A DNA stretch of 64,000 bases from Euglena gracilis. Its lineage: Eukaryota. How positions within the stretch are numbered: position 1 is the first letter of the stretch; every line of letters begins with the position of its first letter. The position numbers and the translations under genes were made by a program. The stretch covers positions 26,734,954 through 26,798,953 of the forward strand of contig CP154954.1 of assembly GCA_039621445.1 (NCBI GenBank). Direction: 5' to 3'. Positions 3,701 through 49,300 of this stretch are shown in pieces. The notes under the pieces were generated by a model that did not search any database, was not told the origin of the DNA, and saw only the letters and a program-made list of their open reading frames with translations.

Positions 3701-4679
3701 GGGGGCAATCCCGCATTCAGCAAAACAAACGGCATGCCAAGGCTGAATGCTGGACCTCTGTAAACTCGAGCCAACAGCCACAATGGTGTCCATAAATATT
3801 CACACCCCACTGCCCAGAAGGCACCCTTTAACGTTTAAATCGTTGGACAACGTCTCTGTGTGCTTGTCAGCTCGTTCTTGGGCCTGAGGAGTGGTGAGAA
3901 AGGCCTGGACATGGGGGCCAGGGAATTAAATGAGTGGGGAGGGGGGGGGTCGCTGAGCTCTTATCCCTTTATGGGTAAGAGCGAAGCTTACCACTGGGGG
4001 AAAACCCCCCCCGAACCCCCCCTCCCCCCCCCCTCGGGGCCACCTCGGGAACCGGCGGATTATCACCATGATCCCGGCCCCGTTCCCGAAATTTTTTTTT
4101 TCAGTCACGAGCGACTGGATTCCTAGTTTCCGAATCACCTGGGTTTGACCCCCAACTCCCCGCCAGGCCCGAGTTATTCACGCGCGAAGGGGTCCAAACT
4201 GGGTAGGATTCGCCAACCCCCCCTGGATAAGCCCCCCCCCCCCCCTTTGGACGGCCAAAAAATGTCAATTTTCAAAATATCTCCAAAATGAAGCAAAATC
4301 AAAGGAAATGTCCGGAGACCTAATTTGAAGCCCTTGGAACGCCCCATCTACTGGTATTTTGATTTCCCCGCAACGCCCCGTCTAGCCCGAGATACGGCCG
4401 TTTTCGGCGCAGCTGGCCGTTTTGTACACTTTTCCCTCTGTTCGACTTGGCCGTTTTCGGGGGGTGGGGGGTCAAAAAATCAATGTTTTCAAAATTTCTC
4501 GAAAATGATGCAAAATCAAAGGAAATGTCCAGAGACCTAAATTGAAGCCCTTGGAACACTCTATCTACTGTGATTTTGGTTTCATCGCAGCTCACCGCCT
4601 AGCCCGAGATACGGCCGTTTTTCGGCCAATTTTGGCCATTTTGTACACGTTTTCCACTGTTCGACTTGGCCATTTTCGG

Positions 4680-6520
4680 CCAAAAAAATCGAAAAAAATC
4701 GAAAAAATTTTTTTTGCCCAAAACGATGTTTTTTGGCCTCCCGGACCTGGAAAAACTGTTTTTGAGCCGAAAATGAGCGTTTTTCGACCCGCCAGCACCC
4801 CGTTCTGGGCCGCCAACCCATTGACTTTGGGTCAAAACCGGGTCAAAAAAGTCAAAAAAAATCGAAAAAAATTTTTTTGCCCAAAACGATGTTTTTTGGC
4901 CTCCCGGACCCGGAAAAACTGTTTTTGAGCCGAAAATGAGCGTTTTTCGACCCGCCAGCGCCCCGTTCTGGGCCGCCAACCCATTGACTTCGGGCCAAAA
5001 CCGGGTCAAAAAAGTCAAAAAAAAATCGAAAAAAATTTTTTGCCCAAAACGATGTTTTTTGGCCTCCCGGACCCGGAAAAACTGTTTTTGAGCCGAAAAT
5101 GAGCGTTTTTCGACCCGCCAGCGCCCCGTTTTGGGCCGCCAACCCATTGACTTCGGGCCAAAACCGGGTCAAAAAAGTCGAAAAAAATCGAAAAAAAATT
5201 TTTTGCCCGAAACGATGTTTTTTGGCCTCCTGGACCCGGAAAAGGGGTTTTCGAGCCGAAAATGGGCGTTTTTCGACCATAATGGCCATCATGGCCTGTG
5301 ATGGCCATGATGCGCATCATGACCGGTGATGCCAATCATGGGTCATAATGTGCATGATGACCCATGATGACCATCATGGGCAATGATGGCCATCATGACC
5401 AATGATGGCCATCAGGACCAATGATGGCCATCACGACCAATGATGGCCATCACGACCAATGATGGCCATCATGACCAATGATGGCCATCATGACCAATGA
5501 TGGCCATCATGACCAATGATGGCCATCATGACCAATGATGGCCATCATGACCAATGATGGCCATCATGACCAATGATGGCCATCATGACCAATGATGGCC
5601 ATCATGACCAATGATGGCCATCATGACCCCTGAGGCCCATCATGACCAATGATGGCCATCATGACCAATGATGGCCATCATGACCAATGATGGCCATCAT
5701 GGCCAATGATGGCCATCATGACCCCTGAGGCCCATCATGACCAATGATGGCCATCAGGACCAATGATGGCCAGCAGGACCAATGATGGCCATCAGGACCA
5801 ACGATGGCCATCATGACCAATGATGGCCATCATGACCAATGATGGCCATCATGACCCCTGAGGCCCATCATGACCAATGATGGCCATCATGACCAATGAT
5901 GGCCAGCATGACCAATGATGGCCATCATGGCCAATGATGGCCATCATGACCCCTGAGGCCCATCATGACCAATGATGGCCATCAGGACCAATGATGGCCA
6001 GCAGGACCAATGATGGCCATCAGGACCAATGATGGCCATCATGACCCATGATGCCCATCATGACCAATGATGGCCATCACGACCAATGATGGCCATCATG
6101 ACCAATGACGGCCATCATGACCCATGATGGCCATCATGACCCATGATGCCCATCATGACCAATGATGGCCATCATGACCAATGATGGCCATCATGGCCCA
6201 TGATGGCCATCATGGGCCATGATGGCCATCATTGGTCATGATGGCCATCATGGGTCAACCAATGATGGCCATCATGGCCCATGATGGCCATCATGACCAA
6301 TGTCAACCGGGTCAAAAAAGTCGAAAAAAATGGAAATTTTTTTTGCCCCAAACGATGTTTTTGGGCCTCCCGGACCCGGAAAAACTGTTTTTGAGCCGAA
6401 AATGAGCGTTTTTCGACCCGCCAGCGCCCCGTTTTGGGCCGCCGACCCATTGACTTTGGGTCAAACCCGGTCAAAAAAGTGGAAAAAAATCGAAAAAATT
6501 TTTTGGGCCCTAAACGATTC
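4680..6520 (+). repeat. 163-bp tandem repeat array, interrupted by a 19-bp satellite
   Basis: The motif GCCC(A/G)AAACGATG recurs at 4716, 4879, 5042 and 5205 (period 163), and a further unit resumes at about 6305-6520. Confidence 0.9.
5380..6302 (+). repeat. 19-bp minisatellite (CATGACCAATGATGGCCAT)n, about 48 units
   Basis: Period 19 read directly. The palindrome ATGATGGCCATCAT spans unit junctions. A variant monomer containing CCCCTGAGGCCC occurs at 5627, 5722, 5855 and 5950. Second copy at about 47295-48193. Confidence 0.95.
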
Positions 6521-20938: not shown

Positions 20939-21614
20939 CCAGCCAGGCTTCTCTTCTCTGACCCCAGGTGGTCCTTGCCCAAAGCACCACCCCCAGGGAG
21001 ATGCGCAAAACCCCCCTTCTCTGTTTTTTTTGGTGGTGGCACGTTTTCGGCGATCCACAGAGACGATGCTTTGCAGCCCGAATATCACAAAAAACACACA
21101 CACAAAATTGAAAAGGGGGCTGATTGGCAGTTCCTGGTCTGAGAGTCCGTGCAGGGGAAAGCAAAAATCTCAGAAACCTCTTTCATGGGTTTTTACCAGT
21201 TTGAAAAACGAAAATTAGGGGCCGGTGTTTTTTTGTCTAAGGGCGAAGCGGGACAAAAAAACATGGACACCTTCGTTGCTGTGTCCATTTGTTTGAGATT
21301 GAGCATTGTCCAGGCTTCTGCTTAAGGGTTCAGCACCCCCTGGAGGGGGGGGGGGCTCAACTGCAGCTTGTCCAAATTTGGCCAGTTGGAATTCTGTTAC
21401 AAAAAAAAACCAGCCCCAACCGAAAACACGAAACAAAGGCGAGAATTGCAGCAGAAAAGAATATCTCTTTGTTTGCCTGACCTGAACATTGATGGTGCCT
21501 GGCCTGAACATTGATGGTGCTTTGACACTCCCCATCCCAAAAACCGACCCCCTCCCAGAAGAGGGGAAACTTTGAAAATGCCAGTGGCGGGGTCACATTC
21601 AAAAAAGCCTGCTC
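20939..21614 (-). other. Nonconventional (non-GT-AG), euglenid-type intron made of a TIR element plus one TSD copy
   Basis: Minus strand reads exon|GAG-CAGGCTT...AAGCCTG-GCTGG|G (N3-CAG ... CTG-N5|R). The TIR element 20944-21611 is flanked by an 8-bp near-direct repeat CTCCCAGC/CTCCCTGC. Extra pairing TGACCCC/GGGGTCA. Removal restores the frame. Copy at 62813-63487. Confidence 0.7.
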
Positions 21615-21809
21615 CCTGCAGCGCATTTCCTTAGCCCCATGGGCATAGACACAGGTGTCCCCGTAAGGGCACTTCCCAGTCTCCTTCCAATTGCGACACA
21701 GGCGCGTCTTGTACTTGTTGTGGTCCACTGAGTGATCATCGTGATGGGTGCCCGAAACCTTGGCGGCCTTTTCATTCCTCTTGGCCTTGGTCTCAGGGTT
21801 GGATACGCC
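21615..21809 (-). CDS. CCCH (C-x8-C-x5-C-x3-H) zinc-finger RNA-binding protein, internal exon
   Basis: Translation ...[32 protein letters not shown] has the TIS11/ZC3H-type KYKTxL lead-in and canonical Cys/His spacing. Confidence 0.88.
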
Positions 21810-25975: not shown

Positions 25976-28064
25976 TTGCTCACCTGCAGTGGACCAGTGG
26001 ACAGGGGGGGGGGGGAATGCGCTGGACGGCCCTCGGAAAAAAATGCGCAAAAATGCGCAAAAAAATGCGCAAAAAATGCGCTGAGTTTGTACATTCCTAA
26101 GGGAAAAAAGACTGAGAAAAATTTCCAACAATAAGCCCAAAATCAAACCAAAATTACCAAAAACAGCTGAAATGAAGGCATTTTTGGTTAAAAAAAAAAT
26201 GCACAAGCAAGGCGTCACCCTCTGTTCACCATAACCGACAATGTCAGCCATGGTGCCCCTCACTTGTGACCAGGGGAGTAGAATTCGATGTGGGGTCTCT
26301 GAAAACCCTTAGTGTCCTCATCATCATTGGATGAGTACCCACTCATCACCCAAGGGTTTTTTCTTGAGGCAGGTCCCTTGGGTGGTAAAAAAAGTGCGGA
26401 AATGGGTTCGTTGGTTATACAAATGGGTTAGTTGAACGTGGGCAAAATTCGGTGAGCATGTGGTTTGGTTGGTGTTGAAGAACGGTGTTGAAGAACACCA
26501 ATGTCGAGTTTGTTTTTGACATACGGACAATGTGGACAACATGGACAATAGGGGAAAAAATGGGATATACTTTTCAGCGCCGCAGGCGCCAAAAAAATGC
26601 TATTTTTAGCACTTTTCGCGATTTTGTGGGTCCCCCGGGACCCCCCCCCCGGCGGGGACCCCCCAGGGGGTGGGTGGGTGGGGGGGGAGCCCCCCCCCCC
26701 CCCCCCTTTTAAAAAAAGCCCCTGATGATGACCATGAATTGCCCACAAAAATTTAAAAAATGCTAAAAATTATTTTAAGAAGTAACTGCCTGAAATGGCA
26801 GAAATCCATCCAAAAATGGAAAAGTGTTGTGGTTTTGATTCAAGCTGCCCATATATGCAGAGCTTTTCTTTGCCAAAGATCATCACACTACATCACATCG
26901 CTATGTCTCTCCTTTCTAACATTGAGCGCGACAAACACTCAATGCGCTTCTTTGATCAGTGCATTTGTGATGGTCAAGATTTTTCCCAACCGTGAATGAA
27001 TGCGCAAACTCCAAAACCAGAAATTGGTATTTGGAAATGTCCAAGAACTCCTGTCTTTGATTTTTCTCTATACCACATGTTGGCGTTGGAGTTGTATTGT
27101 CCATTTACAACGATTTGTATTCGAAAAACGGCTCAAAACGGCTTGAAACGAACCAATGTAACTCATTTGTCAAAGGTTGGAATGAAGTGGGACAAATTCT
27201 GAGGTCAATGCGCTTTTGCAGCAATGACATTTCCATTTCAAACCATTCATTTCCGCTTTCTGAACCATTTTGGTCGGTTTTGGGGGGTTCCAACAAAATC
27301 ATTATTCATGACGCAGCATTTTGGACGGAGACTGCGTTTTAAGACACAGGCCTCATGCCTGAAGTCCGGCGGCGTAGACGCACACCCTGTCCTGAGTCCC
27401 TGCACCTAAGACGCGGACTTTAAGGGCAAAAGTGCAAAACACCCGATCCGTGTGCAAAAAATTTCGGAACGTAGGCAAATATTTTGAGATAAAATGCCAA
27501 ACATTTTTAAGACAAAATGTGAACAAATTTTTAACATGTGCAAACATTTTTGAGATAAAGTGCAAAATATTGACCGGAAGTGCAAAAAAATACGGTGTGG
27601 AGTGCGGAAAAATCGGGATGTGCGGCATTGAAAATCGATTAATCGATCACCGGACGAACGAACGATGATTGGGGGGGTCTTGACCGATTGATCGACTTTC
27701 GATTAATCGAACAACCCTGCCGGGAAACGGCGATTGGGGTGGATGCCGGGAAACAAAATGAGGAGGCGTAATGATGAGCGCTTCTCCCAGGAGACCAGGC
27801 ACCTGAGCCACCAGGCCCAGGCGAACGCTGCGGGGAGGTCGTAGATCGTCAACCCTGAGGCGTCTTGCAGGAGCAAGGGATCGTCAAAGCATGGGTGGGG
27901 GGGGGAGACCACGTTGATGCGGCCCGGCCAAGGGCAGCCTCCTTGGCCCAGAAATCGGCGGAGTCGTTCCCCACTGCCTTGGGATGACCGGTCTCAATGG
28001 CGGCCGTGTCATGCGCCCGCACCTTCTCCAGGAGTGGCGCCGTTGAGAGGGAGGAGGCTGCGGC

Positions 28065-28606
28065 CAGGCTTGTGCTTACCGACCGGGGGGGGAGGGGGGG
28101 GGGGGGTGCTATGGGGTGCCTGCCCCAAGAAGGCACACCCCCGGGGGGGGGGGGGGTCCGGGGGGACCCAGAAAATTCTCATTGAAAAAGGCCTTTTCCG
28201 GGCCAGGCTGTTTTTTTACCAACCCCGGGGGGGAGGGGGGGGTCCGGAGTGCTTTTGAGTGCCTGACCAGGCAGGCACTGGGGGGGGGGTCGGATTTTGG
28301 CCTGTGCCCAGGCACATTCCTTTGAAAATAGGCCATTTTTGGCTCCCCGCGCCTTTGGCGCCGGGTCTGTGCTAGGGCACTTGTGCTAGGCACTTGAGGT
28401 AGGGCCGTGTGCCCTACCCCCCCCCCCCCCGGGGGGGTCGGATCGGGAGTGCCTTGAAGTGCCTGCCCAGGCAGGCACCCCCCCCCCCTGGGGTGGGGTC
28501 GGCACCTGACTAAAATACAGCCTGTTCCGGGCCCCCGGCGCCTTTGGCACCTTTAGCCTTTAGCATCCCCTCCCGTGGGGTAGGCACCCGACTAAGCACA
28601 AGCCTG
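28065..28606. mobile_element. hAT-like MITE inserted in the LINE RNase H, itself containing a second MITE (28204-28524)
   Basis: Outer TIRs CAGGCTTGTGCTTA...TAAGCACAAGCCTG with TSD GCTGCGGC. Inner TIRs CAGGCTGT...ACAGCCTG with TSD TTCCGGGC. Duplicate at 32462-33008. Confidence 0.9.
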
Positions 28607-29334
28607 GCTGCGGCGATGATCTGGCGCACTACCGGGGGGGGGGGGGATTTCGTGCCAGAGAAATTTTGCGGCGACAAATTTCGCGGATGACAAATTTCGT
28701 GGGATTCCTTAAAAATGCCCGAAAATATTTTGCGGGATTTTTTTTCTGTGAAGCAAAAAAGGGAAGCCTTGAGCACCTGAAAGGAAATACACAGACAAAA
28801 ATTTCGCGGGATTCCTTAAAAATGTCTGGAAATATTTCGCGGGATTTGCTTCCGCGAAAATTGTCTGGCAAATTTTCTCTAGAGCAAAATTTTTGCCCCC
28901 CCCCCCCCGGTGGGGACATGAGGGGAGACTGGAGGACACACGGAAGGGAGAAGAGATTCCCCCCTGCCAGCGTTTGGAGGGAGGTCAGTAAGTCTGTCAA
29001 GATGTGCGGGGGGGGAGCCTCCGCCGCCGTGCGTAGGGCCACCAACTCGCAGAGGGTGGAGCTCAAGGGACCTGGAACAGAACAGGTGAGGGCAGACTCG
29101 GTGTCTGGGGCCCAGACCGCGGCTCCCCCGGAGGACGCTAAGGAGTCATCTGTGAAGACGGCACCCGGAGGGAGGAAGTCATTAACCGGCGTGAGGACAA
29201 TCTGTCCTGGGTAGGCCTGCTCGGGCAGAGGCGCGGCCAGGCTGCAGACCGGACGAGCGCAAGCCTGGTTGCGCACCACACGCCATCCCACTGCGAGGGC
29301 AGAGCGCAGAGCGGAGGATGTTTCTGCCCAGGTT

Positions 29335-29433
29335 TAGGATAATGACATTCGTGAAAAGTGGTCGGAAAGAAAAGGAAAAAAATCGTGAAATTTCGTGAAA
29401 TTTCAGGGGCCGGAAATTTCAGTCACCACCCTG
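29335..29433. mobile_element. 99-bp degenerate MITE
   Basis: Imperfect TIRs TAGGATAATGAC...GTCACCACCCTG; perfect 8-bp TSD CCCAGGTT. Confidence 0.65.
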
Positions 29434-29732
29434 CCCAGGTTGGGCCCGGGCAGGCGATTGCCCGGTGGACGAAGCCTGAGATGGCAAAGGTGTTGCCCAG
29501 GGTCTGGAGCCATACCAATTGCAGAAACCGCATGGGCGACCGGGTGTGCCACAGCAGATTCTCCCAACGGGCCCCCCACTGCCGCAGCGGGGAGCGCCAG
29601 GTGTTCAAGCGCAGGGGCTTGTGACCCATGGCCGCCACCCCGGCGGACATGAGCCGCTGGGGGGCCATCGGCTTGAGATCCCGGATCTGGTACACACCTG
29701 TGGGAGGACAGTGGCGCGCCACAGGAGGGAGC

Positions 29733-30847: not shown

Positions 30848-31127
30848 CAGGGGTTTTTTTAGTCGTGGACCCCCGGGGGGGGGGAGGGGGGGTGCATGGT
30901 GGGTGGGTCCGGCTGAGCCCCCCCCCCCGGGGGGGGGGGGGGTCCCCTTGGAGGGGGGTGGGATATACTTTTCAGCGCCGCAGGCGCCAAAAAAATTTCT
31001 ATTTTTAGCACTTTTCGCGATTTTCGGCCATTTTTTGTGGGTCCTCCGGGACCCCCCCCCCCGGGGGGACCCCCCAGGGGGTGGGTGGGTGGGGGGGACC
31101 CCCCCTGTTTTTAAAAAAAAACCCCTG
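30848..31127. mobile_element. hAT-like MITE, CAGGGGTTTTTTT family
   Basis: TIRs CAGGGGTTTTTTT...AAAAAAACCCCTG; perfect TSD ATGATGAC. Confidence 0.88.
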
Positions 31128-33977
31128 ATGATGACCATGGATTGACCCCAAAAATTCCAAAAATGCTAAAAATTATTGCAAAAAAAAACTGCCTGAAATG
31201 GCCAGCCAAAAAAGCAAAATATTTGGGGTTTTGATGCAAGCTGTCCACATATGCAGTGCTTTTCTTTGCCAAAAAATCATCACACTACATCACATCGCTA
31301 TGTCTCTCCTTTCTAACATTGAGCGCAACAAACACTCAATGCGCTTCTTTGAGCAGTGCATTTGTGATGGTCAAGATTTTTCCCAACCGTGAATGAATGC
31401 GCAAACTCCAAAACCAGAAATTGGTATTTGGAAATGTCCAAGAACTCCTGTCTTTGATTTTTCTCTATACCACATGTTGGCGTTGGAGTTGTATTGTCCA
31501 TTTACAACGATTTGTATTCGGAAAAACGGCTCAAAACGGCTTGAAACGAACCAATGTAACTCATTTGTCAAAGGTTGGAATGAAGTGGGACAAATTCTGA
31601 GGTCAATGCGCTTTTGCAGCAATGACATTTCCATTTCAAACCATTCATTTCCGCTTTCTGAACCATTTTGGTCGGTTTTGGGGGGTTCCAACAAAATCAT
31701 TATTCATGACGCAGCATTTTGGACGGAGACTGCGTTTTAAGACACAGGCCTCATGCCTGAAGTCCGGCGGCGTAGACGCACACCCTGTCCTGAGTCCCTG
31801 CACCTAAGACGCGGACTTTAAGGGCAAAAGTGCAAAACACCCGATCCGTGTGCAAAAAATTTCGGAACGTAGGCAAATATTTTGAGATAAAATGCCAAAC
31901 ATTTTTGAGACAAAATGTGAACAAATTTTTAACATGTGCAAACATTTTTGAGATAAAGTGCAAAATATTGACCGGAAGTGCAAAAAAATACGGTGTGGAG
32001 TGCGGAAAAATCGGGATGTGCGGCATTGAAAATCGATTAATCGATCACCGGACGAACGAACGATGATTGGGGGGGTCTTGACCGATTGATCGACTTTCGA
32101 TTAATCGAACAACCCTGCCGGGAAACGGCGATTGGGGTGGATGCCGGGAAACAAAATGAGGAGGCGTAATGATGAGCGCTTCTCCCAGGAGACCAGGCAC
32201 CTGAGCCACCAGGCCCAGGCGAACGCTGCGGGGAGGTCGTAGATCGTCAACCCTGAGGCGTCTTGCAGGAGCAAGGGATCGTCAAAGCATGGGGGGGGGA
32301 GGAGACCACGTTGATGCGGCCCGGCCAAGGGCAGCCTCCTTGGCCCAGAAATCGGCGGAGTCGTTCCCCACTGCCTTGGGATGACCGGTCTCAATGGCGG
32401 CCGTGTCATGCGCCCGCACCTTCTCCAGGAGTGGCGCCGTTGAGAGGGAGGAGGCTGCGGCCAGGCTTGTGCTTACCGACCGGGGGGGGGGGGGGGGGGG
32501 GGGGTGGGTGCTATGGGGTGCCTGCCCCAAGAAGGCACACCCCCGGGGGCGGGGGTGGGGGGTCCGGGGGGACCCAGAAAATTCTCATTGAAAAAGGCCT
32601 TTTCCGGGCCAGGCTGTTTTTTTACCAACCCCGGGGGGAGGGGGGGGTCCGGAGTGCTTTTGAGTGCCTGACCAGGCAGGCACTGGGGGGGGGTCGGATT
32701 TTGGCCTGTGCCCAGGCACATTCCTTTGAAAATAGGCCATTTTTGGCTCCCCGCGCCTTTGGCGCCGGGTCTGTGCTAGGGCACTTGTGCTAGGCACTTG
32801 AGGTAGGGCCGTGTGCCCTACCCCCCCCCCCCCGGGGGGGTCGGATCGGGAGTGCCTTGAAGTGCCTGCCCAGGCAGGCACCCCCCCCCCTGGGGTGGGG
32901 TCGGCACCTGACTAAAATACAGCCTGTTCCGGGCCCCCGGCGCCTTTGGCACCTTTAGCCTTTAGCATCCCCTCCCGTGGGGTAGGCACCCGACTAAGCA
33001 CAAGCCTGGCTGCGGCGATGATCTGGCGCACTACCGGGGGGGGGGGGATTTCGTGCCAGAGAAATTTTGCGGCGACAAATTTCGCGGATGACAAATTTCG
33101 TGGGATTCCTTAAAAATGCCCGAAAATATTTTGCGGGATTTTTTTTCTGTGAAGCAAAAAAGGGAAGCCTTGAGCACCTGAAAGGAAATACACAGACAAA
33201 AATTTCGCGGGATTCCTTAAAAATGTCTGGAAATATTTCGCGGGATTTGCTTCCGCGAAAATTGTCTGGCAAATTTTCTCTAGAGCAAAATTTTTGCCCC
33301 CCCCCGGTGGGGACATGAGGGGAGACTGGAGGACACACGGAAGGGAGAAGAGATTCCCCCCTGCCAGCGTTTGGAGGGAGGTCAGTAAGTCTGTCAAGAT
33401 GTGCGGGGGGGAGGCCTCCGCCGCCGTGCGTAGGGCCACCAACTCGCAGAGGGTGGAGCTCAAGGGACCTGGAACAGAACAGGTGAGGGCAGACTCGGTG
33501 TCTGGGGCCCAGACCGCGGCTCCCCCGGAGGACGCTAAGGAGTCATCTGTGAAGACGGCACCCGGAGGGAGGAAGTCATTAACCGGCGTGAGGACAATCT
33601 GTCCTGGGTAGGCCTGCTCGGGGCAGAGGCGCGGCCAGGCTGCAGACCGGACGAGCGCAAGCCTGGTTGCGCACCACACGCCATCCCACTGCGAGGGCAG
33701 AGCGCAGAGCGGAGGATGTTTCTGCCCAGGTTTAGGATAATGACATTCGTGAAAAGTGGTCGGAAAGAAAAGGAAAAAAATCGTGAAATTTCGTGAAATT
33801 TCAGGGGCCGGAAATTTCAGTCACCACCCTGCCCAGGTTGGGCCCGGGCAGGCGATTGCCCGGTGGACGAAGCCTGAGATGGCAAAGGTGTTGCCCAGGG
33901 TCTGGAGCCATACCAATTGCAGAAACCGCATGGGCGACCGGGTGTGCCACAGCAGATTCTCCCAACGGGCCCCCCAC
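30959..33977 (+). repeat. About 3-kb direct duplication, copy 2 (includes a second copy of the LINE RNase H remnant and its MITEs)
   Basis: Near-identical to 26561-29580 except for the first ~300 bp. Ends abruptly where the DIRS fragment starts. Confidence 0.92.
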
Positions 33978-33979
33978 GG

Positions 33980-34890
33980 CAACAAAAAAACTGCCACACC
34001 AGGCGGCCCCACTGGGGAGCCACAGCAGCAGATGCATTACAATGTCCACTGGACAAGATGGGGGATCTTTATGCAAACCCCCCCTGGTCTGTAATCCAAA
34101 AATTTCTCCCCGGATTAAAAATGCTTCCACAGGTCAAAAAATTGATGGTCAGCCCCTACTGAGATTCAGCCACATGGTGGCCCCAGTTAATAAAAATGAA
34201 AGCTCCAGGGACCCGCTGCCTGAAAATCACCCCCTACATGGGTATGTTCACAATTGCAGGGGGGAAAAAATGCCACCCCCCAGGTGGCCCCTGCTTTGCA
34301 TGAGTGCTCAGGCAAATTCTGGAGGGGAAACAAGTACAAAATTAAACCATTAACGATTTACTGGGAAGAAACCCCAGTTTAAAGCGTTATCAAAGCGCTT
34401 TTACGCTTTTTTATGGGTAATTTTGGACAAAATTACCCCCCCCCCCTGAAGCCACCACTGACCAAGTGGTTGACGCTTTAATTCAACTGTTTCAAATTTC
34501 AATGGCCCAAGCACGCAATGCATACAGTGCTATGCCATTGATCCCTGGCTTGGGAGGCCTGAGTTTCCATGCAATGTTGGCACCTTATAAAAGGCTTTGG
34601 AACCAAAATTTGGAGAAATATTGTGCATTCTGGGATCCCCTCCCAATCCTCCTGGGGCTGGCACAGTCCCCCCTGCCCTTTGATATATGTACATTGCGTA
34701 CACAACTCATTTTCTGTTCATGAATCCTCTGTTTATACAGAAATTCTGATTTGGCACAGGTCCAAAGAACCACCAGTTTATTGGAGGGGGGGCACCCTAC
34801 AACAAAATTAAACGTAAAGGTCAAAAACTCCACATGTGGGAGCGATTTGTCTCCATTCCCCAATGCCCCCAGATGAGTCCCTTTCATTTA
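33980..34890 (+). pseudogene. DIRS-type retrotransposon fragment: adenine-methyltransferase-like domain and N-terminal part of the tyrosine recombinase
   Basis: DLYANPPWSVI...TWWPQL...EKMPPPRWPL (MT-like), followed by RNAYSAMPLIPG...KYCAFWDPLPIL...CLYRNSDL (YR R-x-x-D-L motif). Contains stops and frameshifts. Confidence 0.75.
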
Positions 34891-35385
34891 ATGATGTCTC
34901 GGACTCCCACGACACAGGAAGGGGGAGGAAGGGACCAGGAGGGCGAAGCACAAGAAGATGGTGAGGTCCTGCTTTCCTTGCCGGCTTGTGCAGTCCTGCA
35001 GGGGCACCCCTTTGTGCAACAATTGGCCCACAAATGTCCTGAAGGCTGAGTCATATCTTTTGACATTTGCCAGATTTTTTATGTAAGTGTCGACACTGGA
35101 CATCGAAACTTTCTGGGATTGTAATATTTGCCTGACACAATCAAGCAGGCCAAATTACACCTTGGGGGGGGCATCTCCTCCCCCCAGCAATTGGTGAACA
35201 GACCCCACTGGGGGTGGTACCAGTAAAACTTTGCTGCCTGGCTGCCTGATTGACATCAATTGGCGCCACCAGGATGTCGAAGCCCAGTGGGGTACGATCA
35301 ACAGACAAGTCAGGTCTGGGTGTGTGCGGCAGACGGGAGATCCTACGGAGGTTGGTAGCCGGCGCGTAGTACCAAGCCGAGCATC

Positions 35386-35458
35386 GCTCGAGTAGCTTAT
35401 TCGGTAAGGTGCTGGGCTCACACGCGGGAGGTCGTGGGTTCGAGACCCAGGTCCCGCC
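35386..35458 (+). promoter_or_regulatory. tRNA-Val(CAC)-derived sequence (Pol III type 2 promoter) in the 5' LTR
   Basis: A box TAGCTTATTCGG (35393), anticodon loop CTCACAC, variable loop AGGTC and B box GGTTCGAGACC (35437), all at tRNA spacing. Acceptor and anticodon stems are degenerate. Confidence 0.8.
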
Positions 35459-36074
35459 GTGTGAGTCCTGGTCGATCCCGTACGGGCAGAGGGCATACCA
35501 CGGGGATCGACCGGGGCGCGTAACTGCGCCCAAGGACGAGACACTGGTTGGCCGGACCTTGGGTGTAGTTCCCCGCCTAAGGGCGTGCAACGGCAAGCAG
35601 TATGAGCTGCCCCGTGGCCGTCCAACGGCGGGTGGTGACAACCAACGTAAACATGGTAGCAGAGGAACCCGTCTAATGCCACACGAACCGGGAAATCACA
35701 GCCTGACCCCACGGCGCCCGGAAGGCGGAAGCGGACGCGCCGAGTCTAGGGCGACTGAAACTCCTACACCGTTCCAAAGTCTTAAGCCGATGCAAAGGAG
35801 GACGCTCCAAGGCGGCAGAGCCCGTGGAAGTCGACAACACGTAAACTGCCGGCAATAGCAAACCCGAGCTGCAGGGGTCGGCAGCCTGGTGACGCAGTAC
35901 TCGTGAGAAGCACTCAGCCAACTAGGGCCGTGTGAGGCATAACCCGAGCTGCAGGGGCCACGGCCATAGTGACGCAGTGGGCTAGTGTAGTCAGGCTCTT
36001 GGGAGGGAGTGTGTGCGGCAGACGGGAGATCCTACGGAGGTTGGTAGCCGGCGCGTAGTACCAAGCCTAGTATC

Positions 36075-36147
36075 GCTCGAGTAGCTTATTCGGTAAGGTG
36101 CTGGGCTCACACGCGGGAGGTCGTGGGTTCGAGACCCAGGTCCTGCC
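36075..36147 (+). promoter_or_regulatory. tRNA-Val(CAC)-derived sequence in the 3' LTR
   Basis: Same A and B boxes and anticodon loop as in the 5' LTR. Confidence 0.8.
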
Positions 36148-39100
36148 GTGTGAGCCCTGGTCGATCAAGTACGGGCAGAGGGCATACCGCGGGGATCGAC
36201 CGGCACGCGTAACTGCGCCCAAGGACGAGACACTGGTTGGCCGGACCTTGGGTGTAGTTCCCTGCCTAAGGGCGTGCCACGGCAAGCAGTATGAGCTGCC
36301 CCGTGGCCGTCCAACGGCGTGTGGTGACAACCAACGTAAACACTGGGTTTACCATTAATCTCTGAACACACTGAGGAATGATGCTCCAGGGGGGGGTTTG
36401 CATAAACTGGGGGGAGGTCCCTCAAGTCTGCCCTTAAGGCATCCACCAGCAAAGCCTCTTGGTCGGGGTATCAACAAACAAACTTGGGGATTTTTTTGTT
36501 TCTGGGTGTGCAAAACATGTCCACCTCTGGGGTAATGTCCTGCCTGAAAAAGTTCAGAATCAGGTGAAAGATGTTTAGTTTTAGGGTATAATCCCCTGGG
36601 TCCTTTTGCTCCCTGGTCAGGGAGTCTGCCAATTGCTCCTTTGTGGGAACCCAAACCACTTGCAAATTGATTTGCTTTTCTTGGCAATGATATAGCAGGG
36701 GTTTAAATATAGAATTGATGTAGGGCTTTTTGCCTCCCCACTTTGTTAAATAGCTCACAGCCAACTGGCTGTCGACATGAAGCATAATTGTTTGCTTTGG
36801 CTTGGCTAGTGCTTTTGTAGTTTCCACTGCAGCCTGCAACTCTTTTTGGTTGATATGAAGGACATGCAGGTCCCTCCAAAAATCCTGCACCTTTTGGCCT
36901 GAATCTTTGTCCAGCCCCCCCCCCCATTGCCAGGTGCTGCTGTCTGAGAAGAGTTCCTGAGAGGCCTGTGATTGAAATGCCCTGCCAACCCCTGGCTGTA
37001 AAAATGTTTTTTAACTCCACAATCTGATCTTTGAACCCCTGGGGAATGGTAAGGGCGTGGTCCCAACCCCACCTGGTGTGCGAATCCACCATTTTGCAAA
37101 GTTGATCTGTCAGAATTCTGAGAAATGGCATGGAGACTAAATAGCTTCTGACCTGCCCCACAATAGATCTGAGTTTTCTGCAGCTCATTTTTTGTGCAGT
37201 GAGCACCTTGCCTAGCTCCTTTCTTAAAAATTTTTAATTTTTCCTGTGAAATTTCCAGTTGGCCTTTTTTCAAATTGATCCACTGGCCCAAATGCTTTAT
37301 TCCCTGTGTGGGTTCCAAACAGGACTTGGGAAGGTTTAATCTGAAACCTGCCAGTAAAAGATCCTGTTTTATTTCTGCCAAATGCTGGGCTGCTGTCTTT
37401 TTGCTGGGTGCTAACAGCAAAATGTCGTCGAGGTAGATGAAAACTACCTTTCCGTCCTTTCTCCATTTCCTTTCCCAGACTCTCATGAGAGCCATAAATT
37501 TTTGTGGCAGGCTGCTTATACCAAAGCATGCAGCTTGAAACTGCCAAGTTTCCCCCCCCCCCACCAGCATGCAAACATGTTTTTCCAGGCTGCTGTGCAG
37601 TTTTAAGTGGAAATAAGCATCTTTCAGATCTATTTTTCCACAGAACCAACCTTTCTTTAAGGATGGGAAGCTTCCCATGTGTTCCAGCCTGAACTTCTGG
37701 GGGGTGAAATGTAGATTTAACTGTCGACAATCTGAAATTAGTCTTTCCTTGGTTTGTTCCCCTTCTTTTTTGGAAATGATGAAATAAGGGACAAAATGTT
37801 TTGCCTCCTCTGGGGGAATCTGCCTGGTTGCCCCTGCACATTCGTCCTTGGGGGGGAGGCCCAAGATTGGCTGCAACAGGGTCCCCCCAGAAGATAATCA
37901 GCCCAGACACCCCAGCTGTGTATGTACCCCCCCACTGCAGACACGGACCTTCCCCCATCATTGAAAATCAGGGGGAAAGCCTGTCCTTGAAAGGCCCTAT
38001 GGCAGGGCCAGCTGCAGCCCCAGTGATGGGGCAACCAAGGGGAAGGACCCCTGTGATGGGGCCTGTGGGATCCCCAGACACATTACACCCAGGGGTGCCC
38101 CCTTACAAGGCCCTGCAGGCCAGCCTGCCCCATTGGGTCAAGGCAGGTGCCTGAAGAGAGGTGTGCTTATGTTCCCCCTGGGTGGGTGGTGGCGATGTGA
38201 AAACAGGGGGTAGTCTTCCAGACCTGTCTGCCCATTTCTGTCCCTCTGGGCTGTGGGCTGCTGGTGTCTTTGTCTCCTCGACTTCATGGCCACCAATGTC
38301 CAGGGTCCATGGCCGTCGTCGAAATGATGGAATTGAAATTTTTCCGGGAAATTGGAGGGTGGGGGGGTTGCGACGGCCACGGACTGGTGCTCCGCTCCGC
38401 TCCTGCTCCATCATCGTCCAGCGCCTGCTGCGCCTGCCCTTTTCTCCACTTCAGGTTTCTTCCTTGAAACTCCTTGCAAAGCTACTTGAAAGCTTGGTGC
38501 CATGTTGGTTGCTCCGGCTCCTGCTGGAACTCCATCTTCTCCAGCTTCTGCTGCCTTCGCCGGCGTTCTTTGTTGCTTTGCTGGGCCGCTGGACACCAGG
38601 TATGTGGCATCTTTCATCGAAGTCAAAATTTCCTTCCTCCGCTGATCGTTGAATTGCTCTTCCCCCTCTGTGTTGATTGGTCGCTGTGGTGAACGTTTTT
38701 GACCTCGTTGAGTTGAAATTCTGCCTTCTTGCGGTCGAAGGGCAGAATTAGGAGTCAGCCAACTCCGGCAACAAAAGCAGTAGGAAGCACCCCCCGCGCA
38801 CACACAAACACACCGAACAGAACAGCCGGAAAGGAAAGCAGGACCTCACCATCCCGAAGTGCGGAGCCCGAATGGTCCACAAGGGAAAAGTGCGGAGTCC
38901 GCGGTGTCGGCAAGGGCTCGCCCCTGGACGCTGGTTGGCTTCCACACGTGCGTGGGTCCTCGGTGCATGTTAAAAAAAAAGGTTCCATAATAAACGGATG
39001 TAAGAAGGTGGAACCTTGGGGGTGAAGAGAACCTGCGCTTCCTCGGACCAGGCTGAATAAAATGACAATTCCCCAACAATTTCTACCTGGTTTGAACGCA

Positions 39101-40138
39101 AAGACAGAGACTCCCCGACTGCACCAAAGAGCACTGCATCACATCGACGAGGCTCAAATCCAGTCTGGCAAGCTTATGCAATGGGCCACAAGGCAGGTGC
39201 GTGCTGAAGCTTAGGTGGCGGATCTCGCAATATGCGGCTTTTGCTTTGTGTGCACATTTGCGCAAATCAACGCTTTTTTCCCTTCAAAATGACTACACCT
39301 GGATCCTGAAGTCAAATATGTGGAGGCGGAGATGGAAGCATGGGCTTTGCAGTTAGGGTGCCCAAGAGCAGGTGCCACCACAGAAGGTGCATAATACCCA
39401 GCATGTGTGTTTGGGAACCTTGAAATGGCTGCCGCATGGGATGTTGCCAGAAAAATTTGGGGGCAGGTGAGAATTAGCCAGAAACGATGTCCCCAAAATT
39501 TTGACCGTGTGAGAATTCAATGGTTGGTGTGCACTTTTGTGCAAGCGAATGATGCGCGCAAATATGCAAATCAATCATTTTTGCAAATGCGTAAACGGGC
39601 CACAGTACAAGCTGAAAATGGTGTGCTTGTGAGTTGTACAAGTGGTTGGTTTGCACAAATGCGCAAACAGTCTGTCTGAAGTTCAGCATTGCTGCGATTT
39701 GAAAATCCTTAAATGCCAGATATTTCACAAAAGTCAAATACCACAAAAAGACCAGCTTCTGGGTCCGAATGTGGGCATCGGTGATTGAACATGTGCAAAA
39801 GAATTTTCAAAGAAACAAAATATATAAAAAACAAAAAATCATCAAAACGGCATGTCCAGTGCCATCCTTGAAAATTTAGTTTAAAGCTGCCCCTCAGCCC
39901 CAGTATTTTGGTCCGAAAACGAGGCAAAATGCATTTGGCTGTAACTGGATGTGTCTACTCACTTGAAAATCCCTGGGTTCAGGGGGGGCATAAAATGTAA
40001 TACCCCGACACTTTATTTCACCTGTCAGACATACTGCACAACACATCCACTTTGTGGACGCTGCTCTCCTCCTGTTTTCTCGTCTCAGAAATCCCTGTTG
40101 TTAAAGTCCCAAAGCTAAAACAACATTTAGGTCAGTGT

Positions 40139-40429
40139 CAGGGGTTTTTTTAAGACCAGGGGGGGAGGGGGGAGGGGGTCGGCACCCACCCCCCCCCCCC
40201 CCGGGGTGGGCCCCCCGGGGGAGGGGGGGGGGCTCCCGGGGGGGCCCACTTTTGCCCGAAAATGCTAAAAAAAGCACCTTTTCAAAATTTTCGGTTCCAA
40301 AGGCGCCTAAAAAGATATACCCACCAGCCCCTACCCCCACCCCCCCGGGGGGGAGGGGGGTCCAAGGGACCCACCCACCCGACCCCCCCTCCCCCCGGGG
40401 GAGGGGGTCCAAGACTAAAAAAACCCCTG
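40139..40429. mobile_element. hAT-like MITE, CAGGGGTTTTTTTA family
   Basis: TIRs CAGGGGTTTTTTTA...TAAAAAAACCCCTG; perfect TSD GTCAGTGT. Confidence 0.9.
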
Positions 40430-40491
40430 GTCAGTGTGTGCAATTAGAAATGTGCCATAAATTTCTTCCAGATCAGTTTTTCTGAATAATG

Positions 40492-46300: not shown

Positions 46301-49300
46301 AGCCCGAGATACGGCCGTTTTCGGCGCAGCTGGCCGTTTTGTACACTTTTCCCTCTGTTCGACTTGGCCGTTTTCGGGGGGTGGGGGGTCAAAAAATCAA
46401 TGTTTTCAAAATTTCTCGAAAATGATGCAAAATCAAAGGAAATGTCCAGAGACCTAAATTGAAGCCCTTGGAACACTCTATCTACTGTGATTTTGGTTTC
46501 ATCGCAGCTCACCGCCTAGCCCGAGATACGGCCGTTTTTCGGCCAATTTTGGCCATTTTGTACACGTTTTCCACTGTTCGACTTGGCCATTTTCGGCCAA
46601 AAAAATCGAAAAAAATCGAAAAAAATTTTTTTGCCCAAAACGATGTTTTTTGGCCTCCCGGACCTGGAAAAACTGTTTTTGAGCCGAAAATGAGCGTTTT
46701 TCGACCCGCCAGCACCCCGTTCTGGGCCGCCAACCCATTGACTTTGGGTCAAAACCGGGTCAAAAAAGTCAAAAAAAATCGAAAAAAATTTTTTTGCCCA
46801 AAACGATGTTTTTTGGCCTCCCGGACCCGGAAAAACTGTTTTTGAGCCGAAAATGAGCGTTTTTCGACCCGCCAGCACCCCGTTCTTGGCCGCCAACCCA
46901 TTGACTTCGGGCCAAAACCGGGTCAAAAAAGTCAAAAAAAATCGAAAAAAATTTTTTGCCCAAAACGATGTTTTTTGGCCTCCCGGACCCGGAAAAACTG
47001 TTTTTGAGCCGAAAATGAGCGTTTTTCGACCCGCCAGCGCCCCGTTCTGGGCCGCCAACCCATTGACTTCGGGCCAAAACCGGGTCAAAAAAGTCGAAAA
47101 AAATCGAAAAAAAATTTTTTGCCCGAAACGATGTTTTTTGGCCTCCTGGACCCGGAAAAGGGGTTTTCGAGCCGAAAATGGGCGTTTTTCGACCATAATG
47201 GCCATCATGGCCTGTGATGGCCATGATGCGCATCATGACCGGTGATGCCAATCATGGGTCATAATGTGCATGATGACCCATGATGACCATCATGGGCAAT
47301 GATGGCCATCATGACCAATGATGGCCATCAGGACCAATGATGGCCATCACGACCAATGATGGCCATCACGACCAATGATGGCCATCATGACCAATGATGG
47401 CCATCATGACCAATGATGGCCATCATGACCAATGATGGCCATCATGACCAATGATGGCCATCATGACCAATGATGGCCATCATGACCAATGATGGCCATC
47501 ATGACCAATGATGGCCATCATGACCCCTGAGGCCCATCATGACCAATGATGGCCATCATGACCAATGATGGCCATCATGACCAATGATGGCCATCATGGC
47601 CAATGATGGCCATCATGACCCCTGAGGCCCATCATGACCAATGATGGCCATCAGGACCAATGATGGCCAGCAGGACCAATGATGGCCATCAGGACCAACG
47701 ATGGCCATCATGACCAATGATGGCCATCATGACCAATGATGGCCATCATGACCCCTGAGGCCCATCATGACCAATGATGGCCATCATGACCAATGATGGC
47801 CAGCATGACCAATGATGGCCATCATGGCCAATGATGGCCATCATGACCCCTGAGGCCCATCATGACCAATGATGGCCATCAGGACCAATGATGGCCAGCA
47901 GGACCAATGATGGCCATCAGGACCAATGATGGCCATCATGACCCATGATGCCCATCATGACCAATGATGGCCATCACGACCAATGATGGCCATCATGACC
48001 AATGACGGCCATCATGACCCATGATGGCCATCATGACCCATGATGCCCATCATGACCAATGATGGCCATCATGACCAATGATGGCCATCATGGCCCATGA
48101 TGGCCATCATGGGCCATGATGGCCATCATTGGTCATGATGGCCATCATGGCCAATGATGGCCATCATGACCCCTGAGGCCCATCATGACCAATGTCAACC
48201 GGGTCAAAAAAGTCGAAAAAAAAGGAAATTTTTTTTGCCCGAAACGATGTTTTTTGGCCTCCCGGACCCGGAAAAACTGTTTTTGAGCCGAAAATGAGCG
48301 TTTTTCGACCCGCCAGCGCCCCGTTTTGGGCCGCCGACCCATTGACTTTGGGTCAAACCCGGTCAAAAAAGTCGAAAAAAATCGAAAAAATTTTTTGGGC
48401 CCGAAACGATTCGCTGGGACGCCGGGCCGCCGGCCGGCCCGCCGGCCCGCCGGCCCGCCGCTGGCCGGGCCGGGCTGGGCCGCCGGGCCGCCGGCCGGTC
48501 CGGGCCGGGCCGCCGGGCCGCCGGCCGGTCCGGGCCAGGCCGCCGGGCCGGGCCGGGCCGGGCCGCCGGGCCGCCGGCCGCCGGCCGGGCCGGGCCTTGC
48601 CGCCGGCCGGGCCGGGCCGGGCCGGACCGTCGGTGGTGGGGGCGCGCTTATCAAGAGCTCAGCACTATTCAAAACCTGGTATGGACCCCCCTCGCCCCCC
48701 CCCACGGGGGGGGGTGGGTCGGACCCGCCCCTCTTGTGAAAAAAATGCATATCCCCAAAGCGCCAGAAAAAGCTTTTGGGCCTTGAAAAATGTCCAAAGA
48801 TCGTGGTTTCACAAACTTTCTTTTGAAAAGATTGGTCAAAATATGCACCAATTTTTCATCTTTTCCCGCGGGAAGCGCTGGAATTTCTTGGGGATGTTCC
48901 GGACCCACCTCCCCCCCTCACTCAGTCCGAAGGGTGGTGTGGGGGTTGTCTGGACCCCCCTCCCCACTTCACAAAACCACTGCTCACCTAATACCCTGTG
49001 GGGTGCAAAAAACGTGGGGTGGAGACCATTAATACGGATCTCAAAAACCTCAAATGAACAATGAATCACCAGGCAAAAAAAAAAATGCAACAAACAAACT
49101 TTTTTCTTGGAATTCTGCGCAAAGCTGATAGAAAAATGACCCCCATTTCAATTTTTCTTTGGCATTTTGCGCCGAAAATGCTGGTATCCAGCCCGGCCAC
49201 ACCAGGCTGGCCCCGGCATTTTCTTTCCGGTGGATCCCTTTGGTTGCCACCTGGCTGGGAGGTCCGCACCGGAAAAGGCATCGGCTGGACGGACCTCGTA

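Follow-up and report, generated by a model that had tools for sequence, protein, structure and literature searches.

A many-copy mobile element of probable TRIM type with a decayed tRNA-like module in each LTR in Euglena gracilis

A contig of Euglena gracilis harbors a real, many-copy mobile element of 1022 bp, located by direct reading and blastn at positions 35321-36342 of the 64-kb stretch of DNA analyzed here (the window, to which all coordinates refer). This element is very probably one copy of a non-autonomous TRIM-type LTR retrotransposon that is present in many copies in this euglenid genome and carries a decayed tRNA-derived module in its LTRs. Its features are as follows.

35316..35320, plus strand: left copy of the TSD, CTGGG (direct reading; empty-site joint)
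35321..35653, plus strand: 5' LTR, 333 bp, TGT...ACA (blastn and direct reading; 96.4% identity to the 3' LTR)
35386..35458, plus strand: tRNA-like segment in the 5' LTR, 73 nt (alignment to the Rfam tRNA model)
35393-35404, plus strand: A box of the 5' LTR, TAGCTTATTCGG, within the tRNA-like segment
35437-35447, plus strand: B box of the 5' LTR, GGTTCGAGACC, within the tRNA-like segment
35654..35666, plus strand: PBS, TGGTAGCAGAGGA, matching a sequence that would pair with the 3' terminus of initiator tRNA-Met
35654..36009, plus strand: interior, 356 bp (blastn; no Pfam match)
36001..36009, plus strand: polypurine tract (PPT), GGGAGGGAG, 9 nt, abutting the 3' LTR (direct reading)
36010..36342, plus strand: 3' LTR, 333 bp, TGT...ACA (blastn and direct reading)
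36075..36147, plus strand: tRNA-like segment in the 3' LTR, with the A box at 36082-36093 and the B box at 36126-36136
36343..36347, plus strand: right copy of the TSD, CTGGG (direct reading; empty-site joint)

Structure and mobility of the element

All cis signals of LTR retrotransposition are present, namely LTRs with TG..CA termini, a PBS of the initiator-tRNA-Met type and a PPT, and the element has no detectable coding capacity. The PBS begins at the first base 3' of the 5' LTR, and its 12-mer occurs only once within the window. TGGTAGCAGAGGA equals the 13 nt that open an 18-nt PBS designed against human tRNAMet(i) (PMC1797187), and a near-identical PBS has been assigned to tRNA-Met in GalEa-like Copia elements (PMC3587641). 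Two diverged copies of a 38-nt direct repeat lie in the interior, at 35861-35898 and 35941-35978. A Pfam search with the open frames over the interior gave zero matches, and a protein search with the longest translated frame (35370-35858) returned 122 candidate relatives, none of them significant. Every structural detail proposed in an earlier note on this DNA (333-bp TG...CA LTRs, an iMet PBS, a PPT, a 5-bp TSD and a 356-bp non-coding interior) was confirmed by direct reading and blastn, and the 12 differences counted among the 333 LTR positions agree with the divergence of about 3-4% estimated there. The fairly recent insertion that the note read from this divergence would need a substitution rate to be dated.

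Evidence for mobility comes from an empty-site joint, 35315->36343, which skips 1027 bases, that is, the 1022 bp of the element plus the 5-bp TSD, and leaves a single CTGGG. This joint was seen in eight contigs of the DNA run X1, in three reads of the RNA run X24 and in one contig of X20, and it represents sister copies of the flanking repeat that lack the element. The element is thus a discrete 1022-bp unit that entered a copy of a different repeat family, with 5 bp of the target duplicated. X20 is a leaf-litter metatranscriptome whose contigs are about 97-98% like the element and flank; these contigs may be DNA carry-over, and therefore no evidence of transcription or habitat is drawn from them.

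In X1, 7390 contigs, a contig count that does not equal copy number, match a 1461-bp stretch made up of the element and its flanks, with identities of at least 99% in 1496, 95-99% in 2690 and 90-95% in 3204. Together with the empty site, these matches show a multi-copy element and argue against a lack of other TSD-flanked copies. At the variant places inside the element, another letter is carried by 4 to 48 distinct X1 contigs. Because the family majority has the letter of the other LTR at six sites (35382, 35500, 35515, 35589, 36068 and 36263), the LTR differences behave as private post-insertion changes.

Word searches in other data sets yielded no further copies. A 32-mer of the tRNA-like part had 0 matches in metagenomes and 0 in viral contigs, and a 23-mer spanning the LTR end and PBS had 0 matches in genome contigs. 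A 22-mer of the T arm was found at a minimum of 120 metagenome loci; a blastn comparison of the element with these 120 gave nothing beyond 60 nt at 80%, and ARAGORN identified tRNA genes (Val, Asp, Glu, Phe, His) at 11 of the 12 loci on which it was run. These tRNA genes are taken to be bacterial, and the loci are not considered to be copies of the element.

With regard to the neighborhood, the element is inserted into an RT/RNase H remnant repeat and is not part of that repeat. This minus-strand remnant (36471-37897) was considered as an autonomous partner and rejected, as it lies on the opposite strand and neither an integrase nor LTR signals were found in it. Two 3-kb direct repeats (26561-29582 and 30959-33980) were likewise rejected as the LTRs of a partner, as they are devoid of TG..CA ends, a TSD and a PBS. 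Elsewhere in the window, a CCCH zinc-finger exon (21570-21767, minus strand) has a match in the EukProt protein EG_transcript_18911, with 100% identity across 79% of the query and, in BLASTP, agreement at 59 of 62 residues. Names of this form are used in papers on Euglena gracilis, and the match supports the earlier guess of a euglenozoan host.

The tRNA-like module and its transcription

The module in each LTR reads as a tRNA-derived sequence that has decayed while its Pol III promoter boxes have stayed intact. The Rfam tRNA model aligns to it over the whole model length (positions 1-71) with 15.8 bits, short of the gathering score of 29, and with an E value of 0.54 in a 131-nt scan against 4227 Rfam families; the anticodon position is CAC. 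A hand count on this alignment gave 4 of 7 pairs in the acceptor stem, 3 of 5 in the anticodon stem and 4 of 5 in the T stem. Over the whole window, ARAGORN made zero tRNA calls and Rfam gave 0 matches at the gathering score. The two copies of the module differ only at 36144, and the A and B boxes are identical between the LTRs, so that the 73-nt tRNA-shaped segment with intact boxes and decayed stems described in the earlier note is recovered by the Rfam alignment and by the identity of the boxes. One of the 12 LTR-LTR differences falls in the tRNA-like part against 2.6 expected, a shortfall that does not significantly indicate constraint.

A type-2 polymerase III promoter requires both an A box and a B box. 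Since the A box (TRGCY..YGG) and the B box (GGTTC) have been kept while the cloverleaf stems decayed, the most likely role of the module would be that of an internal Pol III promoter. Transcription of the element would then begin near 35386, and the 65 bp of LTR before that point would be U3. Starting in the 5' LTR, Pol III could transcribe past the end of the 3' LTR and terminate at the first flanking T-run, T7 at 36491; such read-through is possible because no run of three or more T occurs on the sense strand of the element. The same feature leaves the LTR without a T-run terminator, and canonical Pol III termination would therefore not close R. Copying of the element would depend in trans on an autonomous LTR retrotransposon located outside the window, and this partner would provide a reverse transcriptase primed by initiator tRNA-Met and an integrase making 5-bp staggered cuts. 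That Pol III is the polymerase making the transposition template is a proposition we hold tentatively, at chances close to or slightly below even.

Another reading, which we regard as a serious possibility though not a favored one, is that the same TRIM carries the module as an inert fossil, an old SINE or tRNA pseudogene copied into both LTRs, and that its template is made by Pol II from the LTR start, as in ordinary TRIMs. The absence of a Pol III terminator from the LTR would fit this reading, and the 65 bp of the LTR upstream of the module could harbor a Pol II promoter. RNA reads are few, with no start at the module: in the runs X21 and X24, which bear the same species label as X1 and of which about 5-6% each was examined, the element and its flanks drew 13 reads in X21 and 26 in X24, out of 12.9 and 8.3 million records, respectively; the reads lie on both strands, and no pile-up of starts or ends of RNA molecules was found among them. 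The lack of T-runs is not significant relative to dinucleotide shuffles of the element (TTT, P=0.15; TTTT, P=0.85), and T-run depletion was accordingly rejected as evidence that Pol III read-through has been selected for. In addition, at least one contig carries a variant with the joint 35408->36174, in which eight letters stand in place of LTR positions 89-164, the B box included, and thus the module is not retained by all copies. RNA reads and one X20 contig match the element solely in the module region and continue with unrelated sequence (loose ends at 35514 and 35449), which suggests that the module is also present in other repeats.

However, perfect boxes next to broken pairs in the acceptor (3/7) and anticodon (2/5) stems form the pattern expected if only promoter function had been retained. 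Furthermore, among the 40 variant places listed, the two tRNA-like segments (146 nt) contain 0, the rest of the LTRs (520 nt) 14 and the interior (356 nt) 8. The pattern is also found in the independently arisen Helenus and Cassandra lineages, and Pol III transcripts have been reported for Cassandra (PMC10886601). Overall, the internal Pol III promoter is the role that we prefer for the module. As to the earlier note, whose title placed a Pol III promoter in each LTR, the tRNA-derived module stands, whereas promoter activity does not find support in the few reads (13 and 26), in which no start place appears, or in an LTR that has no terminator.

It is improbable, in our view, that the tRNA-like fold serves as a signal for RNA processing or packaging, for example as a site of RNase P or RNase Z cleavage that defines an RNA end. 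The RNA of the LTR is unusually structured (-167.4 kcal/mol for the 5' LTR, z -4.59, with 0 of 100 shuffles as stable), and the segment 35385-35465 folds at z -4.27, both of which would suit such a signal. However, the predicted minimum-energy fold is not a cloverleaf, as the anticodon region pairs with sequence downstream of the tRNA-like part; the acceptor stem, needed by RNase P and RNase Z, has only 4 of its 7 pairs; and the RNA reads lack end pile-ups. Finally, the idea that the structure is not mobile, but consists of direct repeats paired by chance or of a locally duplicated segment, with tRNA pseudogenes included, would fit the single copy that blastn finds in the 64-kb window, and it is nonetheless dismissed with near certainty on the basis of other copies of the flanking repeat in which the site is precisely empty and CTGGG stands once, the PBS and PPT exactly at the edges of LTRs with TG..CA termini, and the thousands of DNA-run contigs that match the stretch.

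Relation to Helenus and other known systems

By classification, the element is in all likelihood a Helenus-type TRIM. Helenus, part of "TRIMp3", comprises TRIMs with tRNA-derived sequence in their LTRs, and its published hosts are fungi, six animal phyla and Selaginella (Kojima, 2024; PMC10886601). The earlier note had placed such elements in fungi, animals and plants, and this source indeed names fungi, animals and one plant. Like Helenus, the element is short and non-coding with two LTRs, and its 1022 bp fall within the range of 311-1263 bp stated there (PMC10886601). The LTR module has the A box TRGCY..YGG and the B box GGTTC and encodes no usable tRNA, the boxes here being TAGCT..CGG and GGTTCGAGACC in both LTRs. 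A PBS follows the 5' LTR, a PPT precedes the 3' LTR, and there are many copies. According to the same source, some fungal Helenus families likewise combine a 5-bp TSD with an initiator tRNA-Met PBS and are tied to Copia-type partners, and fish Helenus modules have likewise been aligned with tRNA-Val-CAC (PMC10886601).

There are also differences. The host in this case is a euglenozoan, and the 333-bp LTR is 10 bp over the longest one published, 323 bp (PMC10886601). Animal Helenus elements have TSDs of 4 bp, and their primers include His, Leu and Lys (PMC10886601). Six words of 10-12 nt taken from the LTR, the LTR/PBS junction and the PBS were searched for in the consensus FASTA of PMC10886601, where five of them had 0 occurrences, in a file whose line breaks could hide words. 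Only generic B-box words were present, GTCGTGGGTTCG four times (Puccinia families in the two shown) and GGTTCGAGACC once, in a fish family. This absence of sequence kinship is no bar to Helenus membership, because the group is delimited by its architecture and considered polyphyletic.

No report of a tRNA-bearing TRIM from Euglena was found in the literature. The element would constitute a new family that widens the host range of an already known kind, set apart from published Helenus by the word search of one consensus file. This is in line with the earlier proposal of a new lineage or range extension in the case of a euglenozoan host, as no specific word is shared with the Helenus consensus sequences and Euglena lies outside the published hosts. 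Pol III transcription of Helenus is itself described as unvalidated by Kojima (PMC10886601).

The element shares a common principle, a small-RNA gene promoter inside non-autonomous LTRs, with Cassandra of plants, which has 5S rRNA sequence in its LTR, and Ajax of a nemertean, which has a 5S promoter. The module here is tRNA-like (type 2 promoter), whereas theirs is 5S (type 1), and Rfam scans detected no 5S rRNA either at 34000-38000 (E<=1) or in the whole window at the gathering score. A hammerhead ribozyme, the hallmark of retrozyme LTRs, was likewise absent from the Rfam scans of the window, of 34000-38000 and of the module. The element also resembles SINE2 in having a tRNA-derived head with A and B boxes, no coding sequence and a high copy number, and in exploiting the machinery of another element. 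However, SINEs have no LTR, PBS or PPT and are copied by LINEs with variable TSDs, in contrast to the full set of LTR signals and the 5-bp TSD seen here. A SINE has been proposed by Kojima as the donor of the Helenus module (PMC10886601), and the module of this element may likewise derive from one.

Implications for Euglena and for tRNA-bearing TRIMs

The element would add a fourth eukaryotic lineage, a very distant one, to the hosts of small-RNA-promoter TRIMs (Helenus, Ajax and Cassandra) and thereby supports a repeated origin of chimeras between tRNA promoters and LTRs; as a kind of element it is not new. In the Euglena genome, which is large and rich in repeats, it probably also gives rise to spurious tRNA predictions and contributes to repeat mass that is classed as LTR or left unclassified; for E. 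gracilis, a size of 2.37 Gb, 21.8% LTR elements and 4882 tRNAscan calls are reported (PMC11252322). Moreover, Euglena is a culturable unicellular organism in which the proposed Pol III origin of such elements could be examined.

A bolder interpretation, which we put forward as possible but rather unlikely, is that the element belongs to a Pol III-driven LTR lineage that arose independently in Euglenozoa and became very abundant there, and that would be the first of its kind beyond fungi, animals and plants. This lineage would make up a visible share of the E. gracilis LTR fraction; it would also account for some of the 4882 tRNA calls, much as Helenus contributes to tRNA predictions in rust fungi. 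In trypanosomatids, which are also Euglenozoa, tRNA-like A and B boxes are known to drive neighboring Pol III genes (PMC4950102). If this interpretation is true, thousands of scattered LTR-borne A and B boxes could seed Pol III activity near host genes.

Architecture of the element and its primer-binding site

A complete miniature LTR element with its flanking target-site duplications (TSDs) occupies window positions 35316-36347, as established by direct reading and blastn. These methods, together with Pfam, confirm the 333-bp TG...CA LTRs, the PPT, the 5-bp TSD and the 356-bp non-coding interior described in an earlier note made from the sequence alone.

Features of the TRIM (window positions)
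35316-35320 and 36343-36347: TSD, CTGGG on either side of the LTR pair
35321-35653 (5') and 36010-36342 (3'), forward strand: LTRs, 333 bp each, TGT at the start and ACA at the end
35393-35404: A box, TAGCTTATTCGG, same letters in the 5' and 3' LTRs
35437-35447: B box, GGTTCGAGACC, same letters in the 5' and 3' LTRs
From 35654, the first base 3' of the 5' LTR: primer-binding site (PBS), TGGTAGCAGAGGA
Between the LTRs: interior, 356 bp, no Pfam match
Nine bases adjoining the 3' LTR: PPT, purines only, GGGAGGGAG

The LTRs differ at 12 of 333 positions (96.4% identity), in keeping with the divergence of about 3-4% estimated earlier. By base counts the TRIM has a G+C content of 62.5%, and blastn finds one copy of it in the 64-kb window. 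Interior frames of at least 110 codons have no Pfam match, and a search for predicted-protein relatives of the longest frame over the TRIM found none. The interior also contains a diverged 38-nt direct repeat (35861-35898 and 35941-35978, 79-85% identity).

The PBS 12-mer occurs once in the 64-kb window. The first 13 bases of the site are the same as in the 18-base PBS complementary to human initiator tRNA-Met that the available text of PMC1797187 describes as built there, and it differs only at the 12th base from the GalEa-like Copia PBS assigned to tRNA-Met in the available text of PMC3587641. Because the PBS agrees with these two published sites, an initiator tRNA-Met type, as proposed earlier for the site directly 3' of the 5' LTR, is supported, the comparison being with human-tRNA and Copia sites.

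Copies, empty sites and surroundings

Alignment to 35100-36560 at a likeness of at least 90% drew on Logan contigs from DNA run X1, on raw reads from RNA runs X21 and X24, which carry the species label of X1, and on contigs from X20, a metatranscriptome of leaf litter. From X1, 7390 contigs aligned (1496 at 99% or above, 2690 at 95-99% and 3204 at 90-95%), and these counts indicate that the TRIM and its flanks are both repeats. When depth is summed, the flanks reach 2-4 times the value of the TRIM, a measure that the tool warns is not copy number and that is taken here to mean solely that copies are many. Position 35315 is joined to 36343, with 1027 bases (the TRIM and one TSD) skipped, in 8 contigs of X1, 1 contig of X20 and 3 reads of X24. 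This joint represents an empty site in sister copies of the flanking repeat, and thus 1022 bp were inserted as one unit with 5 bp duplicated. Contigs in such number and a precise empty site argue against the single-copy outcome named in the earlier note, and the TRIM is a genuine mobile, many-copy family.

At 35382, 35500, 35515, 35589, 36068 and 36263 the family majority carries the letter of the other LTR, as expected if the LTRs were identical at insertion and drifted afterwards. At 35579/36268 the majority letter is absent from both LTRs, a subfamily mark. Among the 40 variant places listed, of 54, none falls in the two tRNA-like modules (146 nt), 14 in other LTR sequence (520 nt) and 8 in the interior. 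One contig variant counts against uniform conservation, as 8 letters there stand in place of LTR positions 89-164, a stretch that takes in the B box, and in further variants pieces of the LTR second half are missing or replaced. In several RNA reads and in one X20 contig, likeness to the TRIM is confined to the module region and ends beyond it, so the module may also occur in other repeats, possibly including a SINE donor.

The flanks (35100-35315 and 36343-36560) belong to a very abundant repeat with about 110 distinct contigs per variant place, of which no second copy was found within the window. X20 includes contigs that share about 97-98% identity with the TRIM; a 661-nt record joins the 3' part of the interior, the LTR, the PBS and the 5' part of the interior, and a 450-nt record is an empty flanking repeat. 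Near-identical Euglena-type repeats are unexpected in a litter sample and may reflect DNA carry-over or a close relative.

Other features of the window
21570-21767, reverse strand: CCCH zinc-finger exon, PF00642, with TIS11-like lead-in; second copy in 41919-64000
26561-29582 and 30959-33980: 3-kb direct repeats, 97% identical, 1.4 kb apart, starting TGGG and ending CCAC
36471-37897, reverse strand: frame-shifted retroelement remnant, RT (PF00078, E 6e-13) with YLDD motif, then weak RNase H (PF00075)

The two ends of the window, 22 kb each (1-22127 and 41919-64000), are direct copies at 99.1% identity, from either an assembly duplication or a segmental duplication in tandem of about 42 kb. A TIS11/ZFP36-like zinc finger is encoded by the CCCH exon; 79% of the query is covered by a 100% match to the EukProt protein 'EG_transcript_18911' (59/62 residues by BLASTP), the match stopping at a likely exon border. 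'EG_transcript' names are in use in Euglena gracilis papers, and this one presumably derives from a published transcriptome. Relatives of the RT remnant, which is possibly DIRS-like, are nearly all unnamed metagenome proteins (best 91% identity), the only named one among the matches listed being a frog protein at 32%. Long tandem-repeat arrays with many staggered self-matches at 85-95% identity lie at 4678-6302 and 46595-48194, and the unit at 4678-5278 measures about 163 bp; 40101-40485 is low-complexity and G-rich with proline/glycine-rich frames on both strands, and G-runs are common across the whole window. In G+C (52%) and in repeat load the window is consistent with the published genome of 2.37 Gb, in which, by the available text of PMC11252322, repeats make up 58.8% and LTR elements 21.8%, and tRNAscan makes 4882 calls. 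The host is thus very probably E. gracilis or a close relative, in line with the euglenozoan suggested in the earlier note.

Transposition and the tRNA-like module

The insertion and the cis signals of the TRIM are the observed part of its mechanism. By established LTR-retrotransposon biology, an autonomous partner would supply Gag, RT/RNase H and integrase, initiator tRNA-Met would prime the minus strand at the PBS, the PPT would prime the plus strand, and the partner's integrase would cut with a 5-bp stagger. No autonomous partner lies in the 64-kb window. The RT/RNase H remnant was rejected as a candidate, being part of the repeat into which the TRIM inserted, on the opposite strand, with no integrase found; so were the 3-kb direct repeats as partner LTRs, as they are without LTR hallmarks and neither TSD nor PBS was found beside them.

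In the window ARAGORN reports no tRNA gene and Rfam no match at gathering score. A focused Rfam scan (4227 families against 131 bases) aligns the tRNA model from 1 to 71, end to end, on 35386-35458 at 15.8 bits (E 0.54; gathering score 29). Counted by hand on this alignment, 4 of 7 acceptor, 3 of 5 anticodon-stem and 4 of 5 T-stem pairs are kept, which with the reading of the boxes bears out the 73-nt tRNA-shaped segment with intact A and B boxes and decayed stems. The anticodon position reads CAC, the sole basis of the putative Val(CAC) label. Fold prediction for the module as RNA favours a long hairpin over a cloverleaf, the anticodon region pairing with downstream sequence, and the whole-LTR fold is unusually stable (z -4.59). 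Two strong hairpins are seen in the LTR: one of the anticodon-loop region with sequence just 3' of the module (35416-35465), the other with an 11-bp perfect stem (about 35470-35513).

Judged from its sequence, a Pol III promoter is a reasonable reading of the module, which, as a weaker step of the mechanism, might act as a type-2 promoter with an RNA start near 35386. The sense strand of the TRIM has no T-run of three or more, so Pol III could read across it, an absence that is non-significant against the TRIM's own composition (TTT, P=0.15; TTTT, P=0.85). Against Pol III use, no T-run terminator lies within the LTR, the first T-run being T7 at 36491. The RNA reads (13 from 12.9 million records in X21, 26 from 8.3 million in X24; both strands, flanks included, with no pile-up of starts or ends) decide neither way, and a poly(A)-based library would miss Pol III products. 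Transcription by Pol III has a little under an even chance; that the module is an inert fossil and transcription is by Pol II is somewhat less probable, and a role in RNA processing or packaging is very improbable.

Relation to Helenus

The available text of Kojima 2024 (PMC10886601) gives the name Helenus to TRIMs whose LTRs contain tRNA-derived sequence, places it in TRIMp3 beside the 5S-type Ajax and Cassandra, and makes the case that such elements arose more than once, by a SINE inserting into an LTR. The earlier classification stands, as every architectural feature of Helenus described there is present in the TRIM, whose A and B boxes match the Helenus motifs TRGCY, YGG and GGTTC. In its 5-bp TSD and initiator tRNA-Met 3'-end PBS the TRIM is like those fungal Helenus families that are linked there to Copia-type partners, and unlike animal Helenus, where TSDs are 4 bp long and the primers are His, Leu or Lys.

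In the Kojima consensus FASTA, five of six TRIM-specific words are absent, generic B-box words being the sole matches; a line break may mask one word, but hardly all. Judged against these words, the TRIM would be a new family. The literature searched gave no link between Euglena and a tRNA-bearing TRIM, and used TRIMp3 in this sense in Kojima 2024 alone. The Helenus hosts in Table 1 of that paper, in its available text, include no protists, and the suggested extension to a euglenozoan is upheld. Overall, the TRIM extends the host range of a known, recently named kind of element and is not a new kind.
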